A stretch of 63,907 nucleotides of DNA, counting the filler, from Folioceros fuciformis (lineage: Eukaryota), in NCBI GenBank assembly GCA_049999805.1. It is 9 parts of 9 records of this genome, joined end to end, with 100 filler letters (N's around TTAATTAATTAA, not from the genome) between each part and the next. Parts side by side here need not be neighbours in the genome. Positions count along the whole stretch, not along the records: positions 38,053 to 49,137 come from JBNGIO010004101.1; positions 49,238 to 55,413 come from JBNGIO010004102.1; 7 more parts are not named here. One strand, written 5' to 3'. Shown piece after piece: positions 6,615-52,469 of the stretch (the stretch's first letter is position 1; the number at the start of each line of letters is the position of its first letter). Both the position numbers and the translations under genes were made by a program. The notes beneath the pieces are model-generated. The model was not told where the DNA came from. It did not search any database and saw nothing but the letters and a program-made list of their open reading frames with translations.

Positions 6615-6714
6615 NNNNNNNNNNNNNNNNNNNNNNNNNNNNNNNNNNNNNNNNNNNNTTAATTAATTAANNNNNNNNNNNNNNNNNNNNNNNNNNNNNN
6701 NNNNNNNNNNNNNN

Positions 6715-11230: not shown

Positions 11231-12250
11231 CTATCGCCTCTCTCCTTGTCGCGGTCGCCTCCCTCCTGGCCGTCGCGCTCCTCCCCTCACTGGCCCGCCT
11301 CTGGCCCTCCTACCCCGCCATTGGTCGAGCAGATCCTCCCATAGGATCTCCACCTCGCTGCTGCTGGACCTCGCTGGCGGCGGCGCAGGTGGGTCCCATC
11401 GTAGGGAACTCCTCTCCTCCCTCCGTCGCCTATTGCTTAGGATGAGGATAGGCTCCCACTCAACCCACTGCTGGGCCTCCTCGTCAGTCAGCTCCACCAT
11501 GACTGCCTCGGAATACCAGTGAGGTAGTCCCCACACCCTCCAGCAGTAGTGGTACGACCCCTTGCGGGTCCTTAGTTGCAGGCTGTAGCCCTGCGTCCCT
11601 CCTAAGCCCATACACACATATAAAAACACTTTTAGTACTCGGGCTCCTTCCACATAGAGGCCTGGCACATAAGAGGCCTCCTCCTCATACTGTAGCACAA
11701 TCCGACCCTTTGTTGCAAAGGAAGTGCTTACCCTTCCTCCCTTGGGCTACCTTGGGTTGCCTGCCCTCTGTTCTCCTAGGGTGCTGGAGGTTCGTCCATT
11801 CCCCCAGCTGCCGCTTCGCCCTGCTCAGTCCTTCTGGCTCGCGTTGCCCTTCCAGAACGTCGGGTCGCAGGCGCCTCCACTACCACCTCTTCGACTACCG
11901 GGGTCGGGGCTTCCGCTACTGGCATTGTCTCTCCTCTACCNNNNNNNNNNNNNNNNNNNNNNNNNNNNNNNNNNNNNNNNNNNNNNNNNNNNNNNNNNNN
12001 NNNNNNNNNNNNNNNNNNNNNNNNNNNNNNNNNNNNNNNNCCTTTCCCTTCACCCGCTCTTTGGCCTCGTCCCGTTCTCGCTTGTACTTGTCAGCCAACT
12101 TTTGGGCTTGCTCCACCGAGGCTGCTTCTTGCTCCTGTGCCCTGGCTACCTCCTGTTGCATCTCCAAGTTAGTGCCATGGGCTTCCCTCACCTGAGCTAG
12201 GAGCAACTCCTGCTGCTCCTTCAGTGCCTGAACTTCTGCCCTTACCTGGG
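11231..12250 (-). mobile_element. Decayed coiled-coil / Arg-rich accessory ORF, probably gypsy-associated
   Basis: QQELLLAQVREAHGTNLEMQQEVARAQEQE...KYKRERDEAKE and an Arg/Gly-rich C-terminus. Lies next to the gypsy LTR region. No recognisable enzyme motif. Confidence 0.35.
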
Positions 12251-12274
12251 GGGCTGTTAAACCCCATAAGGGAT

Positions 12275-12483
12275 AGTTAGAAATAATAGCAGGCCATGTT
12301 GGTTCTGTACCACTATGGTTAGTCAGCTAGACCTAGCAACTGAGTTAGTATACGTAGTTAGCTAGGCTAGCGAAAGGACACACCCCTTACGAGACCACCT
12401 ATAAAAGCCCACCTATGAACACACTTAGTTTAATTGTTAATATAGCATCTTTGTTTAAGACGCTTTCGCATGCAATTCTAACT
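12275..12483 (+). mobile_element. 209-bp 5' LTR with AGT...ACT termini, followed by a tRNA-iMet PBS (12484-12495); internal region continues to the gap at 14154
   Basis: Starts AGTTAGAA, ends TTCTAACT, then TGGTATCAGAGC. Similar in sequence and length to the LTRs at 42432 and 46576 (shared TGGTTCTGTA, GGTTAGTC, CTAGACCTAG and CACCCCTT blocks). Confidence 0.85.
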
Positions 12484-15269
12484 TGGTATCAGAGCCACAG
12501 GGCTCTTACCATGGTCTCTAGGTCCAATGGCTAGATTACGTATGTATCACTACCTAGGTGAGCAATGGACGCATGAACCTCTACTTGCTCGCTTATGGAT
12601 AGAAGCAATAGATATGTCGTTCTCGTTAGCATATTGAAATGACAAGACCACCATTGGAAGTTACGACAATATCTTTGTCGTCGCTTTCACACAACTGTGT
12701 AGCTGGGCTCACCCATGTCTTACACTAAAATCTAGACTCACTATTTTTATAGGATTAGATTTAGTGTCCTACAATTTTTCCTTTAGAAGAAATGAAAAAA
12801 AAAGAAATGTATGTTTCTTTTTTTTATCATTTTTTTATCTTTTTAAAATAAAGAAAAGGAGATTTGATAGGGTTCTCTATATAGGTTTATAAGCATGGCT
12901 TTGTGTTTAGGGGAAGGCATTCAGCCTTGCTCCTTCTTACACATTGCTCTTCTAAGCTTTTCTCCTATTCCAGCAACCATTTCAACACTTGCTTCGACTC
13001 ACCAACATGGCCAGAAATCGGCGCAACGCTGCTCATTCTCGGCGCTTTGGTGATGATGTGGAGCGTGCTCAAGGGTGATCAACTCAACGAAGGAATTCAC
13101 GGGGATTCGGATGGCAGACTGCACCTCGCTACTATCAATCCTTGGGTGACAACTTCTTGGATGCTTTGATCCAAGCTTTGGATAATAGAGGGTGGACTCC
13201 CCAGCCTGATGCGGCCCACAATCGTCGTGAATTGGGACCCATTCAATCTCCAAGTCACCACAATCGACAACACAGGAGATTGCAGGAAAGATGCAGGCGT
13301 TCTGGTTTTCCTACTGATTCCCAGCTCAATTCCTCACCTTGCATGACATCCTCAAGGCGCCATGAAGAATCAAGCACGTCTCTCTAGCAGGATTTGTCCG
13401 ACGGCCTCAATTCTGTTGGAAATTCTGCTTGGGGGGAGAGCGACGACGATTTGATCGTCACCGAGTTTTCCCCATCCAGGCAGCTAGAGTGGAGAGGCAC
13501 CCAATTCGATCAGCCCCTAATGGCGCCCCATCGGTCAGAAGCAGAGACACAGGCGGTGGCCCAATTCCTCAGCCCCAGCTGGTTTCCATCGCCAAGATTG
13601 CAATCGGCGCGCGCATCGCAGGAGACGCGCTCGAGCGAGGGGTCATGGCCCTTGGCGAAACGGTGCCCAACTTAAGTTGGGCAACCGCTCACGGGGCTGG
13701 GCCTGCTCACGAATTGGTGCCCTTAACTTGGGCACCCGTTCGCGAAGCGGTGCCCCGCGACGAGCTGCCACCTGTTCGGGTCAACGGGGCGCCCATTCAA
13801 CGGAATGACGTGACCACTCCGTGAACGGGCGTGACCCCTGTCGCCTTCAACAAGGCTACCGGTTCTGTTTTTCCTATCACTCCTGTTAATTGCTTTTCGA
13901 GCTCTTTTCCAGCAGATATCAGTGGCGATTTTGGTGGCCATCCTTCTCAACTCTGACGGTTTTTGGCTATGCGAAGTGTGCCTCCTAAACACGATTTCAA
14001 CACTGGGACATCGTCAAAACCTGCCCTCGTAGTTGTTAAGGAGGAACCAATATCGTCCTCCCCTGCTTTCGAGACTTTGGAAGCTGCCTACAAGGAGTTA
14101 AGTACGACGAAGCCCAAGCCCAAGCTTCTGCTCCTGAGCAACGCTCTCTCCATNNNNNNNNNNNNNNNNNNNNNNNNNNNNNNNNNNNNNNNNNNNNTTA
14201 ATTAATTAANNNNNNNNNNNNNNNNNNNNNNNNNNNNNNNNNNNNNNNNNNNNAGCATTGTATGCAGGTGCGCGCCACACTGGCTCACTTCTGCCGCGCA
14301 AAAATTGAGTTGCGATCCCCTCCACGCTTGCGCGTTTTTCTCCACCTACAGCGTTCTCTCCTGCCACACACAACACAATTTTTTTTTGTGCCCGTTTTTC
14401 AAGTTGCAACTACCAAAACGGGTTTTTCATACCCATTTTTTAGGGCCTTTTTTATTTTTTATTTTCTTTTTCCTTATTTTTCTCATTTAGGTATTAATCT
14501 ATATATATAACTTAAAAAAAGGGGAAGGAGGAGGGGATAATATATTCTCATAAAATAGTTTTAGGCTATAGTTTTAGGCCCTAAAATTTTCCGTTCCCCT
14601 AGTTCGTAGTGTAGTGAGTGGGAGTGATGGAATAAATAATTAATTAGGGCACTACTCATTAGGGTGTCCGTAAATCCTAGAATTAAGGATAATTGACTTC
14701 TAGGGTTTAAGACACTTATTTATGCGGTTATGCAAGTAGTTAGTTGTTATGTTTGTTATAACAACTTTGTAACTACCTTGTAATCGCTTGTGCTATAAGA
14801 ACACTTGCTCTAGCACCATAATGTAAGTTTTCTTATGTGAAAGAGCAATTTTTGATTTTCATTAGGACAATTCCTTTTGTATAATATTTTCTCCATGGGC
14901 TTTTGGAGGTAAATACTCTAATGGCCGCTATGGGCCCTTTCCCCATAGTGGTTGTGCCTAATAGCCGTCACTAACCACTATAGGGGTGTTGCCAAATCAA
15001 TGGTCTCAATTGTGGTCATAACCTAGGCTATTGCCAAACCAAGGAGCCTTAGCCTCATGTGAGGCTAGGTCATCCCTCCATGGCCCCCTTGTAAAGTGAG
15101 GGTTGAGGCAAGAGATGTGGCACTACACGAGGGTTGAGGACCCATGTGAGAATTGAGGCCTTACTCCTCAACCCAAAACTTGACTTTAATCCTAAATTCT
15201 TGTTGGTTCTAAATACCAACCTTAAATTTTTTATCCTATTCTACACCTTAAATAAGGTTTAGGAAGTTC

Positions 15270-17199: not shown

Positions 17200-17700
17200 G
17201 ACTAACCCTGACGCTTAATGACTACCAATAACACCTAAAATATCATGGTCTGGAAGGAAGAAGAGTTTACCTACTATTAGAGCTATTGCTTCTCTTATCA
17301 ATGTCGATCTTGTGTATGGCAATAGCGAACGCTCTATAAATGCCATTAACCAATGTTCGTTGCAGAGCAATGGAAACCTTCTACTGAAAAAGCACTCTGT
17401 ATATGCCATTAGCCAATGCTTGTTGTAGAGCAATGGAAACTCTCTACCAAAAGAGCTCTGTATATGCCATTAACCAATGCTCGTTGTAGAGCAATGGAAA
17501 CCCTCTAGCGAAGGAGCCCTATGTATATGCCATTAGCCAATGCTCGTTGTAGAGTAATGGAGACCCTTTACTGAAAGACTGCTCTATATATTCCAGAAGC
17601 CAATGCTCGTTAGAGTAATGGACACCCTTTACTAAACGAATGCTGCAATATAAGCTGGAGAAAGACCAAACCCATTTTTCCCTATTATGAATAGCATTGG
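17200..17700 (-). mobile_element. 3' end of the CRE-like LINE with ~61-bp tandem amplification (~5 copies, ~17330-17640)
   Basis: C-terminal DHDILGVIGS matches HHDILGVVGS at 5289. The unit TATATGCCATTAGCCAATGCTCGTTGTAGAGCAATGGAAAC is the reverse complement of the VSIALQRALANG-coding segment. Confidence 0.75.
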
Positions 17701-21607: not shown

Positions 21608-24600
21608 CGCAGGATCTCTAGAGGAGCCACATGATGAAGGAGGAGAAGAGGAGANNNNNNNNNNNNNNNNNNNNNNNNNNNNNNNNNNNNNNNNNNNNNN
21701 NNNNNNNNNNNNNNNNNNNNNNNNNNNNNNNNNNNNNNNNNNNNNNNNNNNNNNTGTGACTGTGTGTGAGAGTGTGACCTCTCTTTCTCCTCTCCTCCTT
21801 CTCTCCTCCTCTCCTCCTTCATCATGTGGCTCCTCTACCTCCCACTTAAAGGCCAATTTACCTTCATAGGAGAGCGGTCTACCTCATGCCCATAAGTGTC
21901 TGAGGTTGTGCGAATTGTTTCGTAGAGAGCCCCTTGGTAAGAACATCTGTAGGGTTCTGACTGGTGTGAGCTTTGACAAGCTGTACCCTCTTGTCTTCCA
22001 ACACCTCTCGAATGAAATGATACTTCACCTCCACATGTTTGGTCTTCGCATGAAACAATGGATTCTTCGCCAACTGGATAGCACTCTGGCTATCACAATG
22101 CAACACTGACAGCTCAACCTTGATCCCCAAATCTCCCACTAAACGAGCAAGCCATATGGCTTTCTTGCAAGCCTCAGTCGTTGCAACATACTTGGCCTCC
22201 GTGGTAGATTACGATATGCATGATTGCAAACGAGGTCGCCAAGAGACTGCCCCTCCAGTGCACATGGAGACATTTTTTTTTTTTTTTCTCCTTTTGTCCA
22301 TATCCCTTGCATAATCAGCATCCGTATATCCCACTACAGATGCATCTTCACTACCAAAACATAAGCACAAAGCTTTCGTACCATTCAAGTACCTCATAAC
22401 TCCTTTCACTGCCTCCCAATGCTTCCTGCCAAGGTTTGACATAAACCTGCTAACCACTCCCACTGCAAAGGCAATGTCGGGACGTGTAGCAATCATTGCA
22501 TACATCCAACTCCCTACAGTTGATGAGTATGGAACCTTCTCCATTTTAGCTTTGTCCTGCACAGAGCTTGGGCAATCCTTGTATGAACCTCCAAAGTTTG
22601 GGGTAGTAGTTTGTTTTGGTTGGAAAAGGGTTAATAGTGGTATGGTTTGGTTTTCTTTTTCAACTTATTTTCCCTAATTTTCCTTTATTTTCTGGTTATT
22701 TTTCCTATTTTTCTTTGTGCTNNNNNNNNNNNNNNNNNNNNNNNNNNNNNNNNNNNNNNNNNNNNTTAATTAATTAANNNNNNNNNNNNNNNNNNNNNNN
22801 NNNNNNNNNNNNNNNNNNNNNTTCATCCGTTCAGCCACACCATTCTGGGGAGGAGTATACGGCGCAGTCAATTCTCTCTTGATTCCCTTGGAATCACAGA
22901 ATGACTGGAAAGCCTTCAAAACATACTCTCTCCCATTGTCTGTCCTTAGACACTTTAGTCGGAGGTCAGACTGATTCTCCACAAGGGTGACAAATGTCTG
23001 AAACACTATCTGAACATCATCCTTTTTCCTTTAAGGATAAACCCACACCTTGCGTGAGAAATCATCCGTAAAAGTGACAAAATAGGATACACCGCCTAAC
23101 GATACAATGTGGATAGGTCCACAAACATCATTGTGAACCAACTCAAGAGGTTTACTTTTGTGTTTACCTCTTGCTCCATGTGGTGACTTCGTCTATTTCC
23201 CATACAAACAGTGCTCACACACGGAGAAATCGGAGAAGTCAAAAGCAGGGACGTAACTAAAACGAGATAGTATCTTCATTTCTTTTTGAGACATATGTCC
23301 TAACCGACTATGCCACAAGAAAACACTTGGCTATTCCGTTACACAAATCACATGATCCTTGACAGTGGTTACCTGAATTGAGTACAAAGTACCACACTTC
23401 GTTTCACGAGCTAACACAAGAGAACCTTTGGAGATCTTCCAAGAACGATCTCCAAACCAACAGTGGAAGCTAGCGTTATCCTACTGCCCTGCGCTTATCA
23501 TGCTTTTGGTCAACTTCGAAACATGCCTAACATCCTTCAGTACGAATGAAGATCCATTGTCGAACTTCAGCTGCACATCATCAACGCGTGCAATCTCGCA
23601 TGTGTAGTTATTTCCAAGCCGAACACATCCTTTCCTAGTAGCATCATAAGTGCTAAACCACTTTCTATGCGGAGTAACATGGAAAGATGCTCTAGAGTCA
23701 ATTATCCTATTAGAGAATAAGTGACTCTCCACGGCTGTCAGTTGTGCAGAATCGAAAGAAGAAGAGATAAGAACATCTCCATCATGAACAGAGTTCACCT
23801 CGTCACGCTTGACACTCGAACTTGCCTTGTTGTCGCTTTGCTTCTTCTCCTTTTCTTTGTCGTTTTTGAACTTCTCACAATCCCTCCTGATGTAACCCTT
23901 CTTGTGACAATGGTAACACTCAACATTGTTACGACTACGAGACTTACTACGGGAAAGACTTCGCTCCTTGTACTTCCCCTTTGAAGTGGACCTTCCTCTT
24001 ACCATGAGGGCATTGGAACCTTCGAAAGGTTCCATATTCTTCTTATTCACATCCTCTGTTAATAGGCTACCTTCTACATTTACAATGGTAAGACCACTGG
24101 CAGGAGCGGAATTACTCATAGCTGTACGAAAAGTGTCCCAACTCTCTGGTAATGTGACCAACAGAAACATAGCTCTCACGGAATCTGGGAACGAGATACC
24201 TTGAGATGAGAGCTGGCTGAAAATGGTATTGAACTCATTCAAATGATCTGACATCCTCGTCCCTTCCTTCATCTTCAAGTCCACCAGCTGTTTCAACCAA
24301 TACACCTGAGAAGCCGCACTTTGCTTCTCATAGCGGTCACACAACTTTTGCCATAGCTCGTAATTTGTGGTCTTGTCTTTCACATTGAAGTAGACCGACT
24401 TCGACAATGTTAGCATGATGGTAGACCTAACAAGCTCATCTAGATCCTGCCACTCATCCTGAGTCATGCTAACAGGTTTCACTCCTAGCAGCTTAATGGG
24501 CTTGATCTGCTTCTTCTATACGAGAACATTATACACTTGTTCTTTCTAGAATGGGAAGTTAGTATCATCTAACTTCTTGATATTGAACATGACGTTTTTC

Positions 24601-25110
24601 TGAGGACCTTATATTTTAAAATCGATGCAAAACAAGCAAAATGCTAGTTAGAAACTGTCGGAATGTAATGTAGCTTGTAAAAGTTACCCTCACAACTTGT
24701 TCTGAATCGGCTGTCCACAATTCAGGCCTCCATCGCTCCCAACTGCAGTCCTGTCGTCCGATTCAAGATCCCGATGCCTCACGGCTGGGATCGGTTTGAC
24801 GCCTGTGCCCTCGCTCTCGGCGTCGGCGCTCCAGTGCCCGCAATCCCGCGTATGCTTGCGATACCCGCACTGCCACTGGCCTCGTCCACGTCGTCCACTG
24901 GCTCGATGGCCGCGACCTCCGCGGCGATTGTGGCGCCAGGCGTGACTAGGCGTCCCTTGCCCGGGCGTCTGCGCCTAGCTCTGTCGGGCCGGCGCCAGAG
25001 GCCGGGTTTGCACCCACGCCCCGAGCGTCGGCCGGGTTGGCGCCCACGTCAAGCGAGCGCCCTGGTCGGGTCTGGCGCCCTTACCCGCCGCCTGGGCAGC
25101 CTGGTGCCCG
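21608..25110 (-). mobile_element. Decayed Ty1/copia family A, copy 1: GC-rich leader, gag, protease, integrase, RT end, RNase H, PPT, partial 3' LTR
   Basis: Gag with CYHCHKKGY knuckle, IIDSRASFH protease, CLRTDNGREY...[10 protein letters not shown] integrase, ATRPDIAFAV RT and CDSQSAI...TKHVEVKYHF RNase H. PPT complement CCTCCCACTTAA at ~21838. Two assembly gaps lie inside, so it may be a composite. Confidence 0.9.
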
Positions 25111-36058: not shown

Positions 36059-36529
36059 ATTACGAAAACTGCATTCAACCGTAGCCAGAACCTTCGGACA
36101 TAGAAGGGAGGAAATGGCTCTTCCTGACCACTGAACAGTGCTTCTGATTTTATCATATATTTTTTACAATAATAATAAACTTCCTCACAACAACAAAGAA
36201 GGATTCCACGTCCGAGGCTGTCTTCCAAGCGGCTTGGGACATTCCTAATGCACTCCGATACTTCCAACACCAGGAAAGCTGCCACACCGGATTATGGCAA
36301 TCACACCTAAGCTGTCCTCAAACTTTGAGGATTTGTCGCATAGTCTTCTAAACAAACTTCCAAACCCTAATACATAGTGGCTGCTTTTTCTTTTCCACTG
36401 TCTTCTGAATAGAGGTTTATTTTGTTGCATGATCTTCAAAACAAACTTTCATACTCTATTACGTAGTGGCCATACTCTATTATATAGTGGCTTTTTTTTC
36501 TGTGGCATAATCTTCAAAATAAACTTTAA

Positions 36530-36840
36530 TACCCTGTTACATATAGTAGCTTTTTCTCGCTTTCTACATACAATTTTAGCTTTTTTTATCTCTACATGCA
36601 ATTTATAGCTTTTTTTCGCTATCTACATCTATTTTTGGCTTTTTCTCTCTCTACATGCAATTTTTGGCTTTTTTTGCTCTCTACGTACATTTTTGGCTTT
36701 TTCTCTCTCTACATGTAATTTTTGGCTTTTTCTTCTCTCTACATACAATTTTAGCTTTTTATCTCTCTACATGTAATTTGTAGCTTTTTTTCACTCTCTA
36801 CATACAATTTTGGCTTTTTCTCTCTCTACATGTAATTTAG
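36530..36840. repeat. T-rich minisatellite, ~30-32-bp unit, ~10 copies
   Basis: TTTTGGCTTTTT(C)TCTCTCTACATG(C/T)AAT repeated. Confidence 0.85.
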
Positions 36841-36859
36841 GGTTGCTATTATCGATACA

Positions 36860-36985
36860 CGGTCCCATCTAGCACATTGTCTCTTTGGGGGCATTGTTTG
36901 GTCCAATCTAGCACATTGTCCCTTCAGAGGCATTGTTCGGTCCCATCTAGCACATTGTCCCTTTGGGTGCATTGTCCGTTTAGGG
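36860..36985. repeat. ~38-bp tandem repeat, 3 copies
   Basis: GGTCCCATCTAGCACATTGTC(T/C)CTT(T/C)GGG.GCATTGT repeated. Confidence 0.8.
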
Positions 36986-37935: not shown

Positions 37936-38052
37936 TTGTGTTTTGTGTGAGANNNNNNNNNNNNNNNNNNNNNNNNNNNNNNNNNNNNNNNNNNNNTTAA
38001 TTAATTAANNNNNNNNNNNNNNNNNNNNNNNNNNNNNNNNNNNNNNNNNNNN

Positions 38053-39700: not shown

Positions 39701-42431
39701 CAAACCGGGTACCAAAGTAGCAATAAGAAGACAGGTATTGAGAGGCACGACGTGGTCCAAGTGGAACAATGACAACAGTTGGGGTGGAATGGATGCCCGC
39801 GAGAAGGGGAGTGGAGGTAAGGCGGGAGGGTGGAATTCGGGCAAAGGTCCAGCAGCCCGTGCAAGGGATGTTAGACCTTACCAAGCCTTGGGGTCGTTGA
39901 GGGCCACCGGTGCAATTGGGAAAGTGCGTGAGGGAGGAGACGGGTGAAGAGTAGGGAGGGAAAGGGGTTATGATGTGAATGGAGAGGTTCAGGGGGCAGG
40001 GTCGGCACCCACAGTAGGATGTTTGTTGTCGGAGTCATTGCAGCTAAGTCTAAGGAATATGGTGGGTGCTTTCCACAAGCGTCGTGGATCGTGATTGATT
40101 CTGAGCTGAATCGGACAATTGACAATCGCTATGAACTTTGGAAGGCCAGGGCGGCTTGCTGCTGCTACTGCTGGCACAATCATGGCATGTGGGTGATATT
40201 GCCTTGCTGTAGTTGTGTGGCCACCTCCACCAGCTCACTCGCCCTTAGATCTTGCATGCCGTGCTCTAGACACCAATAAGTTGCCTTGGTGGCCCATCTC
40301 GTAGCAAGCCCCCTTCTTCATGAAACCACTCCAACTCCAGCCAAGTTGCAGCCCACAGAGCCGTAAGGATGTGTGGCTGCCTTGCTGCAAGCAAGGTTTT
40401 CTCAAATCAATTGAAGGGAGTTGTCGAAGTAAGACTTCAGGCTGCTCACACGTGCCTTTCTTCACTTGTGGCTGCAAAACTGAAGCATCGCTCAGGGAGC
40501 AACATGATGAAGGAGGAGAGGAGAAAGCAAGGTCTCAATTGCAAGGGAGCTCAAGAGCGTATTTATACCCTCTAGAAGAGCTCCCAAGGAAGCTTCACAA
40601 GAAGCTCACAGGAAGCTGAGCAAGAAGCTTCCTAAAGATTAGCTTAAGCTAATCTAAACAAATGACAATTAATTAGACACTAATCTTAGACTAAACACAT
40701 TCGTCTAAGCACATTGGCTTTAATAACCCTACAACCTCCCACTTAAAGGCCAATTTACCTTCATAGGAGAGTGGTCTACCTCATGCCCATGAGTGTCTGA
40801 GCTCGTGCGAATTGCTCCGTAGAGAGCCCCTTGGTAAGAATATTAGCAGGGTTGTGATTGGTGTGAAATTGAACAAGCTGCACCTCTTGTCTTCCAACAC
40901 CTCTCGAATGAAGTGATACTTCACTTCCACATGTTTGGTCTTCGCATGAAACATTGGATTCTTTGCCAATTGGATAGCAATCTGGCTATCACAATGCCAC
41001 ACTGGCAGCTCAACCTTGATCCCCAAGTCTCCCACTAAACGAGCAAGCCACATGGCTTCCTTGCAAGCCTCAATCGCTACAACATACTCGGCCTCTGTGG
41101 TAGATAGTGTTATGCACAATTGCAAACAAGATCGCTATGAGACTGCCCCTCCAGTGCACATGAAGACATAACCTGATGTGGACCTCCTTTTGTCCATATC
41201 CTTAGCATAATCAACATCTGTATATCCCACGACAGATACGTCTTCACTACCAAAACATATGCACAAAGCTTTTGTACCATTTAAATACCTCATAACTCCA
41301 TTTACTGCCTCCCAATGCTTCTTACCAGGGTTTGACATAAATCTGCTAACCACTCCCACTGCAAAAGCAATGTCAGGACGTGTAGCGATCATTGCATACA
41401 TCAAACTCCCTACAGCTGATGAGTATGGAACCTTCTCCATTTCAGCTTTGTCCTTCGTAAAGCTTAGGCAATCCTTGCTCGAAATTTTCATATTTGGAGG
41501 CAACTGGGTACTCAATACCTTCCCCTTCTCCATATTGAAACGTTGAAGCACCTTGTTAATGTATTTAGTCTGAGACAAGTAAAGCAAATGCTTATGTCTG
41601 TCTCAACAAATACGCATGCCAAAAATATGGCTGGCCTCTCCCAAGTCTATCGTGTCAAAGCGAGCATTCAACTTTGACTTCAACACTGAAATCTCATCAC
41701 TGCTATTCCCAGCAATTAGCATATCATCCACATAGAGGACCAAAATGATCAAGCTTCCATCCTTAGCTTGCTTCGTATAGAGGCAATTATCCTCATCGCT
41801 ACATTTGTAGCCTTCAGAAAGCATAAATGAGTGGAACTTGTAATACCACTTCCTGGGTGCCTGCTTCAAACCATAAAGACTCTTCTTTAACCTGCACACC
41901 AGATTCTCTTTGCCCTTTTCAATGAAACCCTCTGGTTGCTGCATGTATACCTCTTCCTGGAGATCACTATGTAGAAATGCAAACTTCAAGTCCATCTGGA
42001 CAAGTTCCATGTCGTGCCTCGCAACCAGACCAAGAACACATCGAAAGGTTGTCATTTTGACAACTGGAGAGAAAATCTCATCAAAGTCAATACCTTGCTG
42101 TTGCTTAAAACCCTTAGCAACCAATCATGCCTTGTACTTGGGTTTGCCATAATGGGATATGTCCATCTTATACACCCATTTGCATGGCAACGCCTTCTTG
42201 CCCCTAAGCAACCGAACCAACTCCCAAGTTTGGTTCTTATGGAGCGAATCCATCTACGACTGCATTGCCTTCTCCCACTTGTCCTTGTCAGTCACTGACA
42301 TGGCTTCTTGATAACAAGAGGGCTCCCCACAATCCGTCAGCATGACATAATCAAGAGATGCAACATACTTATCAGGAGGATGTGAGATCCTTCCTGACCT
42401 ACGAAGCACTGGCGCCTCGAACGGAGCTGGT

Positions 42432-45400
42432 AGTCAGAATATAAGGCAGACCACGTGGTTCTGTATCACGTTGGTTAGTCTAACTAGAACTAGTTATAAG
42501 TGCAGTTAGTTAACTGGCAGGCTAGTTATAGGACGCACCCCTTCGTAAACCGCTATTTAAGGCCTACCTTTGTATCCACCTATTCAGTTGCTAATAGATC
42601 ATCTTCGATGCATCTGCTTCCGCGTTAGCAATTTTAACTTGGTATCAGAGCTACGGCTCACATGGTTACTGATCATGGCTAGAAAGATGTTGTTGAGTTT
42701 GTGCAAGATCTCTGGGGAGATCTCTGGATCTCTTAGGATGTTTAATAGAAAGTTGCTTCTAATTAAATCTGCAGATCAACAGGTTTAGATTAGAGTAGCA
42801 ATCTCTAGACATTCTACTTTCAGAATAGAACGTTCTGATATAAAAATCCACGAGAATGATACCATTGATCGATCCCCCACCTCAATACTGATCCTACCCC
42901 TAGGCGGNNNNNNNNNNNNNNNNNNNNNNNNNNNNNNNNNNNNNNNNNNNNNNNNNNNNNNNNNNNNNNNNNNNNNNNNNNNNNNNNNNNNNNNNNNNNN
43001 NNNNNNNCTTTCAGAATAGAACGTTCTGATATAAAAATCCACGAAAATGATACCATTGATCGATTCCCCACCTCAGTACTAATCCTACCCCTGGGCACTT
43101 AACTTCAGAGTTTTGATGTGGAGCGGGTTACTTACCCGACTCATACCTCAGCACATTATACATCTGGTTTGGTATAAAGATATGAAGAGGCAAACGCCAT
43201 AAAAATGACTTTAATTTTCGCAGAGAGGCTCGCGGCCTCTCCCTCTTTGCGCTTCGTTCACATGCGCGACGCGAGACAATTGTCGCGGGGGCAATTCTTC
43301 TCAATCTCTCCAATCAGATCACCATGGCAAGAACTCGCAAGAGATCTCAACGTCCAGGCTCACGGTCTCAGAGGCAAACTAGGCCTCAACCTAATAGAAT
43401 TGCAATTGGATCAGGCATCCGGACGATGTCCAATCTTCGGAATTCTGAATCCTCCCAGGGAATTGCAAGCCCGGTCTTCTTCTTATCAGATCGCAATTTG
43501 GCTCTCTGCCCATGGCTGGCTAAATGGAATCCAGGTGTCTGTACCTCTCTCAAATTCACTTGAGAGTGCTGCTTCTAGGCCTGAGATTGCCCAAAATTGC
43601 CCTTGCTTCAGTCCAGATTGCACACACAGGAATCCCAGATTGTTTGCTCTTTAGGTAGGAGCTTGCCAGGCGGATCTAGCAGCAGGGGGAGCACGATCCT
43701 TTCCCAACCACAATTCTTTGCAGGAAGTGCAGGTTCAGGGAGAGGCCTCCCACATCGCAGCAGCGCGTGAGGATGCCCTCGCAGTGCGCGGAACGGCGCG
43801 GGGGTCCGAACCGGTGCCCGTGACTGGGTGTGCACCGGTTCATAACCGAACCGGCAAACTTAACACCGGTTTGGGCCCGGACCTGACCTATCCCTCCCCG
43901 GATGTAACTAATCCTTACTTTTCTAAGAATTCTGGTTTTCAGGACTTTGCTGGTGGCCTTTCTACACTTAATTCAGCCTCTAATTTCACATCTTCGTGTT
44001 TTTGGCTGCCCTGCCTATGCTCTTGTCCCTTCGCAGCACCGCGCCAAGCTTGATGCTCGTGCTCGGAAGCTGGTCTTTGTGGGCTATGGTGATGATCGCA
44101 AAGCCTACAAGCTCGTGGACATCAATCTTGACATTGATGACTCTAATCTATGCGCGCACTGTCACCTTTGATGAAGCCAAGATAGTTCCTGCTCTCAGGA
44201 CGTCCTTGGAGCTTCCTCTTGATGTCTCTGATGGTGCTTCCTCTGGCTCGAGCACCTCCGCTCCCCTGGTGACATCTCTCTTGAACACATTGTTCAGCCC
44301 TTTACTTTTCCGGCTGTTGGTGTTCCTCCTCCTCCTCCTGTGGCTCCTATCCCTCAAGCAGGTCCGGTGCCGCCAGTTGCTGGTCTTGCTCCTCACATGC
44401 AGCCCGCTCCTGCGCCCCTTGTTCCTGCTCGAGAGGGGGACATGGAGATAGACCACGAGGCAGTAGCGGAGGACCCTCCTATGGAACAAGGTGGTGTTGA
44501 ACATGTTGGTTTTGATCAAGTGGTTCCCCATGATATTCCTCCATCCCCTCCTAGGCCATTGGCTGCTCCCGAGCGTAGATATCCCACTCGTGTGCGTCAG
44601 CCTAGGCATCTCTGGAAGGACCTACCATTTGACATTGAGTTTAATCAAGCTCACTTAACCCATGGTGATTCTATGGATGCTCTCTATGCCTTAAGTGTTG
44701 TTGTTGCAGAGGGAGATCCTTTAACCTTACAGGAGGCTTACTCCAGACCTAAGGCAGCTAAATGGAAGCTGGCCGTCGATGATGAGTATAACTCATTAAT
44801 CAAAAACAACACCTGGTCTCTTGTCAGCCTGCCCAAGGGTAGAACTACCGTCAAATGCAAATGGGTTCTTAAGACTAAGTTCCAGGAAGTTGAGCCTAGA
44901 ATCCGCTACAAAGCGAGATTAGTGGCTAAGGGGTATAGTCAGAAAGAGGGAGTTGATTATCAAGGCGATAAGGTCTACTCACCCGTAGTTAAAGCTGCGT
45001 CCGTAAGGATGCTCCTTGCTTTATGTGCTGAACTAAACTTAGCAATTTATCAGCTAGATGTGTGCACGGCCTTTCTCTATGGTCATTTATAGGAAGAGAT
45101 CTACATGGATCAGCCTGAGGACTACGTAGACAAAGCGCGCCCACACAAGGTGTGTAAACTCAATCGATCCATTTATGGACTCAAGCAGAGCCCACGTTTG
45201 TGGTATGAGAGGATGGACTCTTATCTCAAGAAAATAGGGTTTGTCCAAAGTGAAGCTGACACTAACATCTATGTTCTACGCAAGGATAGCTCTCTTGTGC
45301 TAGTCGCTCTCTATGTGGATGACTTGGTCATTCCAGGGAACAACGTAGACCTAGTCAACAAGATCAAGGCTGACCTTAGCAGGGAATTCGAGATGAAGGA

Positions 45401-46783
45401 CCTGGGAAAGGTTAAGTATATCCTTGGCATGCATGTACACAGAGATAGTACATGTGCTATTTACCTTCACCAGGGTAGATACGTAGCTGGTATGCTCAAA
45501 CGCTTCAACATGGAGAATGCAAGGGCGTCAACCACACCAGGTGCCTTTGGCGTCAAGCTCTCTTCTGCCTCATGTCCATAATCTAAAGAAGACAAGAAAG
45601 AAATGGAGAATATCCCTTACCGTATGGCCGTAGGTACCCTTATGTTCTTGAGTAATCAAACAAGGCCCGATATCTCCAACACTGTAAATGCAGTTGCTCA
45701 GTTCTCTGAGAACCCAAGGAAGGTTCATTGAATAGCCCTCAAGCGTATCATGAGGTACGTCAAGGGTACACCCAATTATGGTCTTTGCTATAAACCCAGC
45801 GGGAAGAAGCATCTGCAACTCACCTGCTACGTAGATGCAGATTGGGCTCCTGACACTGATACCCGCAAAAGTATATCAGCCTTTTGCTTTCTCGCCAGCT
45901 CCTCCGTAGTTAACTGGTCTTGTAGAAAACAAGCAGCCATCTCTTTATCTTCCATAGAGTCAGAGTACAAGGCACTCACCAAAGCTACAAAGGAGGCTGA
46001 ATGGGAAAGGAAGCTATGCGAAGACTTGGGTATGAAGCAGGAAGGGCCAACTATTTTGCATTGTGATAACATGTTAGCAATTGCTTTGGTTGCCAACCCC
46101 GTCTTCCACGCACGCACCAAGCATATAGAGATACAACATCATTATATCAGGGATGCTGCTGAAAGAGGTATCGTCAAGGTTCAATAAAAACCTACCGACG
46201 ACAACATAGCAGATGTGCTGACCAAGTCCTTGCCCAAGTTTAAACACTGTTACCACAGGGAAGGGCTTGGATTGGTAGATTGTAGTAGTTACGTGACACT
46301 AGATAAGTAACTCATTTGGTAGGACCTTTCACTACACCTATGTTCCGTCACTTGGGTTGGTGTTTCAAAGCAGACGACATGCTTCTCTTCTGGTCTCTGG
46401 AGTGGTGTTCTACTTTGAGAGGTCCTGTAGGCTACAGGCTCTGCAAGAGTGAGGACGACCGACTCTTGGTGATAGCCGATTTGAAGATGTTTGAAGCTTG
46501 GCGTCAACGGCGGTGATCTCCGTTTGTATTTAGGAGCTCTCAGTTCACAGCAACCAGCACGTGTCTGAGAGGGAGAGTTAGAATATAAGGCAGACCACGT
46601 GGTTCTGTATCACATAGGTTAGTCTAACTAGACCTAGTTAGAAGTGCAGTTAGGTAACTGGCAGGCTAGTTATAGGATGCACCCCTTCGTAAACCGCTAT
46701 TTAAGGCCTACCTTTGTATCCACCTATTCAGTTGCTAATAGATCATCTTCGATGCATCTGCTTCCGCGTTAGCAATTCTAACT
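42432..46783 (+). mobile_element. Nested Ty1/copia element with non-canonical AGT...ACT LTRs (42432-42639 and 46576-46783), TSD CTGGT
   Basis: Two 208-bp LTRs with 8 mismatches by manual comparison. PBS TGGTATCAGAGC at 42640. PPT GAGAGGGAG ends at 46575. TSD CTGGT at 42427-42431 and 46784-46788. Integrase C-terminus [21 protein letters not shown]...LYVDDL and RNase H are in copia order. No gag, protease or integrase core is visible. Confidence 0.95.
42815..43100. repeat. ~90-bp tandem repeat in the leader of the nested copia element, spanning a gap
   Basis: CTTTCAGAATAGAACGTTCTGATATAAAAATCCACG...CCTACCCCT occurs on both sides of the 100-N gap with several substitutions. Confidence 0.65.
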
Positions 46784-49238
46784 CTGGTTGCACTCTCTCT
46801 TCTACAAGTGGAGGAACTTGTTCCTGCACATCACAACATTCAACCTGCGTGGGACGGTTAAGTCCATCTTCTTGGAAAACCACCCGTCGCACCTCCACAG
46901 TTGGAGTAGGCTTCTTGTGCATCTTGGTCTCATTGAAGAACATGTCATTGCTGCGAACCATCATCTTGGCCTCCAGATCCCACAGACGGTATCCCATCTC
47001 ACCAGAGTCACCATAGCCAAGAAAATTACATTTTCTAGACTTGGGTGCTAACTTGTCCCGAAACTCCTTTGGAACATGGTCGTATGCCTTGCAGCCAAAC
47101 AGTCGTAGATGCTTGTAAGATGGCTTCTTTCCATAGCACAGTTCCTATGGAACCTTCTCATCCAAAGCCTTGTTAGGAGATCTATTAATAAGATCCACCG
47201 CTGTAGACACTGCTTCTATCCAAATCCATTCGGCAATCCAGAGTTTGACAACAAACTACGCATCCTCTCCTGGATGGTCATGTTCATCCGTTCAGCCACA
47301 CCATTCTGGGGAGGAGTATACGGGGCAATCATTTCTCTCTTGATTTCTCTCCATGTGGTGATTTCGTCTATTTCCCATACAAATAGTGCTCACACATGGA
47401 GAAATCGAAGAAGTCAAAAGCAGGGACGTAACCAAAACGAAATAAGATCTTCATTCCTTTTTGAGACACATGTCCTGACCAACAATGCCACAAGGAAACA
47501 TTTGGCTATTCCGTTCCATAAATCACATGATCCTTGACAGTGGTTACCTGAAGTGAGTACAAAGTGCCACACTTCGATCCATGAGCTAACACAAGAGAAC
47601 CTTTGGAGATCTTCTAAAAATGATCCCCAAACCAACAATGGTAGCCAACGTCATCTAATTGCCCTATGCTAATTATGCTTTTTGTCAGCTTCGGAACATG
47701 CCTAACATCCTTCAGTATGAATGAAGATCCGTTGTCAAACTTCAGCTGCACATCACCAACGCTTGCAATCTCGCATGCGTAGTTATTTCCAAGCCGAACA
47801 CATCCTTTCCTAGTAGCATCATAGTTGCTAAACCACTCCCTATGCGGAGTAATATGGAAAGATGAGCCATAGTCAATTATCCAATTAGAGAATAAGTGAT
47901 TATCCACGATTGTCAACTGTGTAGAATCTAAGAAAGAAGAGATAAGAACATCTCCATCATCAACAGAATTCACCTCGTCAAACTTGATACTTGGACTTGC
48001 CTTGTTATCGTTTTGCTTCTTCTCCTTTCCTTTGTCCTTCGTGAACTTCTTCCCCTTTGAAGTGGACCTTCCTCTCACCATGAGGGCATTGGAACCTTTT
48101 GAAGGTTCCATATTCTTCCTGTCCACCTCTTCTGTTAACAGGCTTCCTTCTACATTTACAATGGTGAAACCACTAGCAGGAGCAAAATTACTTAGAGTTG
48201 TACGAAAGGTGTCCCAACTCTCTAGTAATGTGACTGATGAAAACGTAGGTCTCACTGAATCTGGAAATGAGATACCTTGAGATGAGTGCTGGCTGAAAAC
48301 GGTATTAAACTCAATCAGATGATTGGACATCCTCGTCCCTTCCTTCATCTTCAAGTCTACTAGCTGTTTCAACCAGTACACCTGAGAAGCCGCACTTTGC
48401 TTCTCATACACGTCACACATTTTTTGCCATAGCTCGTAACTTGTTGTCTTGTCTTTCACATTGAAGTAGACCGACTTCGGCAATGTTAGCATGATGGTAG
48501 ATCTAGCAAGCTCATCTAGATCATGCCACTCAACCTGAGTCATGCTCACAGGTTTCACATCTAGCAACTTTATGAGCTTGATCTGCATTTTCTGCACTAG
48601 AACATTATAGACTTGTTCTTTCCAGAATGGGAAGTTAGTACCATCTAACTTCTTGATATTGAACATAACGTTTTCTGGGGACGCCATCATTCAAAATCGA
48701 TGCAAATCAAACAAAGGCTAGTTAGAAATGGTTTGAATGTAATGTAGATTCTGAAAGTTACCCCCATGCCTTGTTGTGCATCGGCTGACACAAGTTGTAG
48801 ACCTCAAACCATCGCACAAGTCTGTCCACAATCTCGGTGATCTGCACCACCATTCTTGCCACGACCGAATGCTCTACTCTTATTGCCTCGTACGTTTAGA
48901 ACCTGTGGAACATAGAATTTCGGGCTAGTGTTTCAATTTTGGTACAACTTGTACAAATGCGGCTAGTATAGGGAAGGTTGGTTCCTTCCTAGTTGGTTTT
49001 GGTTTTATTTTCTATTTTTATTTTTTTCAGCGGCTATATATGTGAGTGAGGTGTTCACGCATGGTAAGGAGAAGAATCTATCGAGGGATAGGAGTCTTAT
49101 GGATTTGTCAAGGGGGTAGAAGTGGTTTGGTACCAAANNNNNNNNNNNNNNNNNNNNNNNNNNNNNNNNNNNNNNNNNNNNTTAATTAATTAANNNNNNN
49201 NNNNNNNNNNNNNNNNNNNNNNNNNNNNNNNNNNNNNA

Positions 49239-51950: not shown

Positions 51951-52469
51951 CAGCATTGGTGTGGCCAGAAACCTGTCTCCACAACTCGGAATGTGCTTCA
52001 CCGATCAACCGTGCCGTCACTATCTCCATGCTGACCAGATGTTTGAGCTTTGGCAACATGCCGACACTCACAAGAAGGCTGCTCACAAGAAGGCAATCTG
52101 GAGATTAGTGAAGGATGAACTGGAGATTTTATTAGGGGGAAAAAAGAGAAAAAAAAATCCCATCTATCCACGAACCACAATGCATTCCTCCTTAGGCATC
52201 CCATCCAGGCCCCTTGCGCTGCAAAGGAGCTTAGTTATGTGAGGCCATTTGGCCCTCGGACTTCTCTCACCCCGTGTGTGTTTCATGTATCATAATTATA
52301 AATTATAAAATTGGGAGAAAAAACATCCTTCACTTCCAACAAGAAGTCATACATAAGAGACACCTTAAGGTAAACAGCCATAATCCGCATGCTAAATAAG
52401 CAGACCGGGATTAAGTTTACAGATTATGAGTTAGTAGTAATAGAACTTGGCTTGGGTTCTAAGAAGATA

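Follow-up and report, generated by a model that had tools for sequence, protein, structure and literature searches.

The terminal bases of a long terminal repeat (LTR) are what the integrase of a retrotransposon grips and joins. Among the closest described systems, the plant copia elements with non-canonical ends, T is the first LTR base in every case that two surveys list (PMC9804982; bioRxiv 10.1101/137141), and the commonest non-canonical ends reported for sacred lotus carry CT-3', in the form TGCT (PMC9804982). Copia families of the Ale lineage with TG..TT and AA..CA ends have been published from Rosaceae (PMC5659011). Here we describe element A, a Ty1/copia retrotransposon lying within a 63,907-nucleotide stretch of DNA from Folioceros fuciformis (assembly GCA_049999805.1), the whole of which is called the window below. 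The integrated ends of this element are best read as AGT...ACT with a 5-bp target-site duplication (TSD), and we hold this reading with good confidence. An original prediction, made from the sequence of the window, had proposed these ends and had added that T is the first base of every known non-canonical plant motif; the published AA..CA families of Rosaceae contradict that addition (PMC5659011).

The window consists of separate scaffold segments connected by linkers of 44 N, TTAATTAATTAA and a further 44 N, which place a stop in all six frames (6615-6714, 14154-14253, 22722-22821, 37953-38052, 49138-49237, 55414-55513, 60944-61043 and 62672-62771), and the segments on either side of a linker are not necessarily genomic neighbours. 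A repeat search identified a direct repeat pair of 208 nt at 42432-42639 and 46576-46783 with 96% identity (200/208). This pair bounds an LTR element at 42432-46783, 4352 nt in length with an internal gap included, that carries a 5-bp duplication on either side and is composed at its ends of the following features.

42427-42431, plus strand: left TSD, CTGGT, present as a single copy in contigs with the uninterrupted site
42432-42639, plus strand: 5' LTR, 208 nt, AGTCAGAAT...ATTTTAACT
42640-42651, plus strand: primer binding site (PBS) TGGTATCAGAGC, initiator-methionine (iMet) type, adjoining the 5' LTR without a spacer, right after ...AACT
42652-42691, plus strand: leader common to element A and a second element, B (see below), from a local alignment of ~45-52 nt counted from the PBS start
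46567-46575, plus strand: polypurine tract (PPT) GAGAGGGAG, a 9-nt purine run adjoining the 3' LTR
46576-46783, plus strand: 3' LTR, 208 nt, AGTTAGAAT...ATTCTAACT, with a perfect 9-nt terminal inverted repeat
46784-46788, plus strand: right TSD, CTGGT

An alignment of the two LTRs that included 20 nt of sequence to either side gives 8 mismatches, and the likeness runs from AGT through ACT only, with a consensus start of AGT(C/T)AGAAT and a consensus end of ATT(T/C)TAACT. Counted from base 1, the terminal inverted repeat is in register, with 9/9 positions matching in the 3' LTR and 7/9 in the 5' LTR. Inspection of the flanks reveals that the CTGGT duplication cannot be extended in either direction, since G stands against the last T of the element on the left and the first A of the element stands against T on the right. 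The PBS 12-mer TGGTATCAGAGC, which is also the PBS of rice Tos17 and Lullaby as given in the account of those elements (PMC3977881), has four matches in the window against 0.00 expected (100 shuffles). With two LTRs, a PBS, a PPT and a 5-bp TSD, the element has the structure of a Ty1/copia retrotransposon; the canonical TG...CA ends, on the other hand, are found in neither of its LTRs nor in the LTR of element B, all of which have AG...CT. Repeat search and alignment thus agree with the 208-bp LTRs and AGT...ACT ends of the original prediction, and the perfect 9-bp inverted repeat of the 3' LTR, the PBS directly at 42640, the PPT abutting 46576 and the CTGGT on both flanks were each recovered where it had placed them. 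The observation is confirmed as real and lies far beyond chance, and AG...CT ends are favoured because the LTR pair, PBS, PPT and 5-bp TSD stand in exact register.

The insertion target is the linker between integrase and reverse transcriptase (RT) of a high-copy canonical copia, referred to here as the host copia, which runs on the opposite strand.

40892-42431, minus strand: host copia, downstream half, with linker, RT and RNase H, located by tblastn
46784-47144, minus strand: host copia, upstream half, with integrase C-terminus and linker ending ...VEERVQP

The tblastn matches place the integrase C-terminus of the host at 47126-46974 and its RT/RNase H at 42328-40892. Separate minus-strand translation of the two flanks yields ...VEERVQP at the end of the right one and PAPFEAPVLRRSGR at the beginning of the left one. 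Within the duplicated CTGGT lies the codon for P, whose phase is identical on both flanks, so the host frame is compatible across the insertion. To examine related copies, Logan contigs of four sequencing runs (X1-X4) were aligned to window positions 43008-46950. Nine X1 contigs match from 46784, and the 30 letters preceding that point equal the left flank (42397-42426) at 29/30 positions. The uninterrupted host site in these contigs reads ...CGGAG CTGGT TGCAC... with one CTGGT, and because the nine contigs join both flanks, other copies of the host family have a single CTGGT and no insert. The proposal that excision of the element with one TSD restores the host copia frame is borne out by both the codon phase and these contigs. 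The host family is highly repetitive, its summed contig depth reaching ~28,000 in X1. A second, partial copy of the family lies in another segment at 21837-24720 and is 87-89% identical to 40734-41477 and 47349-48793; the part of it with the would-be empty site is lost at a linker.

One further feature bears on the integrity of the element.

42908-43007, no strand: 100-N scaffold gap inside the element, whose edges at 42817-42905 and 43008-43096 (89 nt) are 94% identical

At position 43065, all X1-X3 contigs have C, which matches the copy at the left edge of the gap. The gap is probably spurious, because its 89-nt edges repeat at 94% and the contigs favour the left version, and the true element would then measure ~4161 nt. 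An assembly artefact, in which the two halves of the element were misjoined over the 100 N, could be entertained on the grounds that the window is made up of scaffolds and contigs strung together, that the gap lies just 268 nt past the 5' LTR, and that the host family is so abundant in X1. Nevertheless, the two junctions coincide at one position of the host, where they share the 5-bp duplication and keep the host frame compatible, the overlap of the gap edges and the contig support at 43065 argue for continuity, and the end motifs are independent of the join. Such a misjoin is therefore very improbable.

The AGT...ACT ends recur in a second element of the window, element B, on another scaffold segment, for which two features can be placed.

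12275-12483, plus strand: LTR of element B, AGTTAGAAA...AATTCTAACT, 73% identical to the LTR of element A
12484-12495, plus strand: PBS TGGTATCAGAGC of element B, adjoining its LTR

The likeness between A and B covers LTR positions 1-208 and continues into the PBS, such that B shares with A the AGTTAGAA start, the TTCTAACT end, the abutting PBS and the leader. Looking at the termini of another family copy, which the original prediction had put forward as a check, thus returns the same ends in an LTR at 73% identity. Element B is truncated at the segment end (14153), 1670 nt past its PBS, and has no partner LTR because the scaffold segment stops there; no further copy of its flank or interior, whether as a partner or as an empty site, occurs in the window. 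An open frame on the minus strand at 12042-12326, coiled-coil-like and rich in Gln and Glu, reaches into the LTR of B, with Pfam matches that are weak and sub-threshold. Beyond the window, a contig of X4, a run that carries the same species label but stems from a different sample and study, agrees with 46697-46783 and then goes on for another 241 nt of unlike sequence. In X1 and X2, an 85%-like copy can be aligned over 46452-46784 and then continues. The 3' boundary is thus found again in contigs of other copies.

To compare these termini with those of other elements, metagenomes were scanned with the motif TTNTAACTTGGTATCAGAGC (TTNTAACT plus the PBS), which returned 73 loci. None of the 73 gave a blastn match to the LTR or to the element (0 matches), and their RT/RNase H is 28-45% identical to that of element A on the main stretches, which is no closer than the host copia at 40%. 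Both LTRs could be found in 24/73 loci, and inspection by eye condensed these to 8 distinct insertions. AG..CT ends are found in none of these 8, of which 7 are T-first (TGTTA...TAACT or TA..CT) and one (L022) is ambiguous. Loci L060/L071 have TGTTA...TAACT ends with a perfect TSD of AATAA, and L012/L049 are similar. For the loci lacking a 3' LTR (36 sets), LTR starts taken from the inverted repeat were rejected as too noisy in AT-rich DNA. In two unrelated metagenome families (L001/L016/L021/L031/L042/L064 and L010/L045), the 5' LTR ends ...AACT by the PBS and the 3' LTR ends ...AACA by the flank; that is to say, the two LTRs of a single element do not have the same last base. A scan of viral contigs for TAACTTGGTATCAGAGC gave 0 matches.

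The position of the LTR start requires closer consideration. If the LTR began one base earlier, its ends would be TAGT...ACT, which belongs to the published TA..CT type. The TSD would then shrink to 4 bp (CTGG), and the G that precedes the 3' LTR would have arisen by later mutation. A T does precede AGT at the 5' LTR of A and at B, the uninterrupted host site is compatible with this placement (T follows CTGG), TA..CT copia elements are both published and present among the metagenome comparators (L061, TSD GATAA), and 4- and 6-bp TSDs are described for some non-canonical Ale families (PMC5659011). In contrast, the base before the 3' LTR is G, and the preceding base thus varies (G at the 3' LTR of A, T at B) while AGTTAGAA is conserved. 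The inverted repeat would also fall one base out of register, compared with 9/9 for AGT, and a 4-bp TSD would be required, a length given for 483 of 43,226 intact elements in maize (bioRxiv 10.1101/137141). We regard the earlier start as improbable.

Several points weigh against the AGT...ACT boundaries themselves. Both ends together with a TSD are available for one insertion only, and the LTR start rests on three LTR copies, with the preceding T in two of them, as noted for A and B. Among the loose contig ends listed, none falls at the LTR start (46576), such that the evidence for the 5' boundary comes from the copies in the window. The 5' LTR of A lies on one contig and the remainder of the element on another, joined over the 100-N gap. 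Neither an intact integrase nor an autonomous copy of the family was recovered. Upstream of B, the sequence AGGGAT resembles the PPT end of A, yet local alignment over 80 nt remains at shuffle level (score 14 against a shuffle mean of 12.9 and maximum of 23 in 300 shuffles), and the upstream sequence of B was rejected as a PPT region since this score is not significant.

Even with the boundaries placed at AGT and ACT, the first base could be a passenger mutation, in which base 1 of the parental 3' LTR in a TG..CT family mutated from T to A and the altered end was still joined by an integrase of relaxed specificity. Since the U3 of both progeny LTRs is copied from a single parent, one change would suffice to give A at both. 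The TGTTA...TAACT elements of other plants (L060/L071 and L012/L049) differ from element A in their termini at base 1 only, and the integrase of Ty1 requires very few terminal bases. What argues for a maintained end instead is that the LTR of B, at 73% identity, has the AGTTAGAA start too, which points to retention of A over a long divergence. Moreover, the change yields perfect symmetry of the two ends, as co-adaptation would. A passenger origin of the ends is on balance unlikely, if a serious contender.

The interior of the element retains only part of a copia coding region.

43008-43974, plus strand: low-copy non-coding DNA at the place of gag, protease and integrase core, judged from open reading frames (ORFs) lacking a Pfam match and from depth
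43975-44171, plus strand: C-terminal part of integrase, SH3-like domain (PF25597, E = 3e-20)
44805-45581, plus strand: reverse transcriptase RVT_2 (PF07727, E = 5.5e-26 and 7.2e-39)
45582-46298, plus strand: RNase H region and pol C-terminus, in the frame of RT, with three more in-frame stops

The match to PF25597 spans 43908-44171 and lies upstream of RVT_2, and the integrase C-terminus, RVT_2 and the RNase H region share one frame. One in-frame stop falls within RT at 45090-45092, bringing the total across the RT/RNase H stretch (44649-46298) to four. By tblastn, the RNase H of the element is 40-41% identical to that of the host copia. The order of integrase C-terminus, RVT_2 and RNase H is that of Ty1/copia, in agreement with the copia identity originally proposed; in the gypsy order, RT and RNase H would precede integrase, whereas here the integrase C-terminus is upstream of RVT_2. 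No ORF or Pfam match for gag, protease or integrase core was found in 42640-43907, as would be present in an autonomous element. Element A is a defective Ty1/copia (Pseudoviridae) derivative of a green plant and belongs to a small family. This copy cannot move by itself, because gag, protease and integrase core are absent and pol carries stops.

Contig evidence bears on the missing region. Summed contig depth in X1 is 54-103 over 43008-43931 and ~450-2000 from 43932 onward; this ~10-20x rise is a sign of several copies, although summed depth is no copy number. At 43975, loose contig ends occur in 5 contigs of X1 and 4 of X2 with other letters upstream, and these divergent letters translate in frame as integrase coding sequence. 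Because relatives diverge upstream of 43975, depth there is low and Pfam matches are lacking, gag, protease and integrase core have been replaced by foreign low-copy DNA, which occupies ~1-1.3 kb. Either the copy moved on proteins of its relatives or it was rearranged after insertion. The two LTRs differ at 8/208 sites (4 transitions and 4 transversions), corresponding to a Kimura two-parameter (K2P) distance of ~0.040. Grasses accumulate 1.3e-8 substitutions per site per year, and at this rate the insertion would be roughly 1.5 million years old.

Two side observations concern the contigs. An extra 30-nt unit is carried by contigs near 43808-43819, inside the low-copy stretch. In X3, C>T (127) and G>A (153) differences over 43008-46950 are in strong excess over other changes, and X3 looks like a bisulfite-type library.

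Protein relatives were sought with the RT/RNase H region, its stops written as X, against 5.8 billion proteins, with scores computed for the 8000 candidates that had the most words in common with it. Among these scored candidates, the best match is 50% identical (P0122) for proteins of similar length and at most 47% for longer polyproteins; closer relatives may lie outside the 8000. The Protein Atlas annotation is copia RT of Streptophyta. The short LTRs and small size of the element fit the Ale lineage.

The arrangement of primers and ends suggests how such an element may integrate. The binding site of the tRNA-iMet primer starts immediately after the last T of the 5' LTR, and the polypurine primer stops immediately before the first A of the 3' LTR. 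Reverse transcription would thus produce a blunt-ended complementary DNA, 5'-AGTTAGAA...TTCTAACT-3', and, with each replication primer directly next to an LTR end, no trimming would be needed. In other words, linear DNA reading AGTTAG...CTAACT could be used without 3' processing. On either strand, the terminal T would then attack the target through its 3'-OH with a 5-bp stagger, leaving the CTGGT duplication. Primer adjacency, the AGT/ACT ends and the 5-bp duplication are observed directly in the DNA; from them we infer that the 3' ends are not processed and that the integrase which joins them accepts CT-3' on either side. A putative CT-3'-adapted integrase is what the DNA ends suggest. On this basis, a copia integrase able to use a 3'-T at both ends seems to have acted here.

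Elsewhere in the window, further matches to TTCTAACT (24646, 48720, 63243 and 63816) were considered as LTR ends and rejected, as they sit in the leader of the host family. The blocks 61044-61852 and 61863-62671 are 100% identical to one another, as are 62772-63334 and 63345-63907, with 10 N between the members of each pair, and they are probably assembly duplicates. These blocks carry, on the minus strand, a canonical copia LTR end, ...TTACA, followed by a 2-nt spacer, AG, and the PBS TGGTATCAGAGC. Tandem arrays with units of ~40-120 nt occupy 17331-17652, 36501-36897, 52448-52914 and 53316-53649, and no tRNA genes were found in the window.

A well-delimited insertion with A first and T last counters the conclusion of the two surveys that the first base is always T. 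The types compared were TGCT, TGGA, TACA, TGTA, TGGT, TACT, TATA, TGTT and AACA; AG..CT corresponds to none of them, and it would become TACT if the LTR started one base earlier. AG..CT is likewise absent from the lists of end types given for lotus (PMC9804982) and Rosaceae (PMC5659011), and nothing relevant to a copia element with AG..CT or AGT...ACT ends was found in the openly licensed PMC and bioRxiv literature, Repbase, TREP and Dfam being outside the scope of that search. The novelty originally claimed is overstated: the open literature searched yielded no AG..CT copia, but CT-3' ends (TGCT, TACT) and an A-first end (AA..CA) are both published. The reach of the finding is limited for the same reason, as each kind of end was already known separately. 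LTR_retriever sets boundaries by TG..CA and then by a fixed list of seven motifs, according to its description (bioRxiv 10.1101/137141), and the elements of REXdb were predicted with 5'TG/3'CA required, as stated for that database (PMC6317226). Because these resources demand TG..CA or a short motif list, families with the rare AG..CT ends would probably be missed or given wrong boundaries; their filters support the expectation that TG...CA-filtered annotation overlooks such elements. A broader and tentative possibility, which we consider doubtful on present evidence, is that green plants harbour an old copia lineage, able to sustain itself, in which both LTR ends have come to terminate in a 3' T (AGTTAGAA...TTCTAACT) with a changed end specificity of its integrase, converging on the ends of insect errantiviruses. 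Were this true, a lineage whose RT/RNase H is at most 50% identical to the scored proteins would have gone unseen because pipelines demand TG..CA or T-first motifs.

Comparison with known systems places element A between several groups. Insect Ty3/gypsy elements of the errantivirus type (gypsy, 17.6 and 297) have AGT...ACT LTR ends with the symmetry AGTTA...TAACT. They use other primer tRNAs and have 4-bp TSDs. These elements carry integrase after RT/RNase H and belong to another superfamily, whereas the integrase C-terminus of element A precedes RVT_2. The AA..CA copia/Ale and TRIM elements described from Rosaceae are alike in being A-first, with LTRs of 201-266 nt and elements of ~4.9 kb (PMC5659011). 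In contrast to element A, which has G as second base, a CT end and a 5-bp TSD, their second base is A, their end is the canonical CA and their TSDs measure 6 bp (PMC5659011). Rice Tos17, as described, is likewise a small copia with short LTRs, a PBS right after the 5' LTR, no gag and partner-assisted mobilisation (PMC3977881). It differs in keeping the whole of pol and in its listed TG..GA ends (bioRxiv 10.1101/137141), whereas the copy here also lacks protease and integrase core. The TG..CT and TA..CT copia elements of plants share with element A the domain order, short LTRs, 5-bp TSD, iMet PBS TGGTATCAGAGC and a ...TAACT end joined through its terminal T, the published mean LTR lengths being 272 and 316 nt versus 208 nt here (bioRxiv 10.1101/137141; PMC9804982). 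Their first base is T, whereas element A begins with A and its ends are perfectly symmetrical (AGTTAGAAT / ATTCTAACT).

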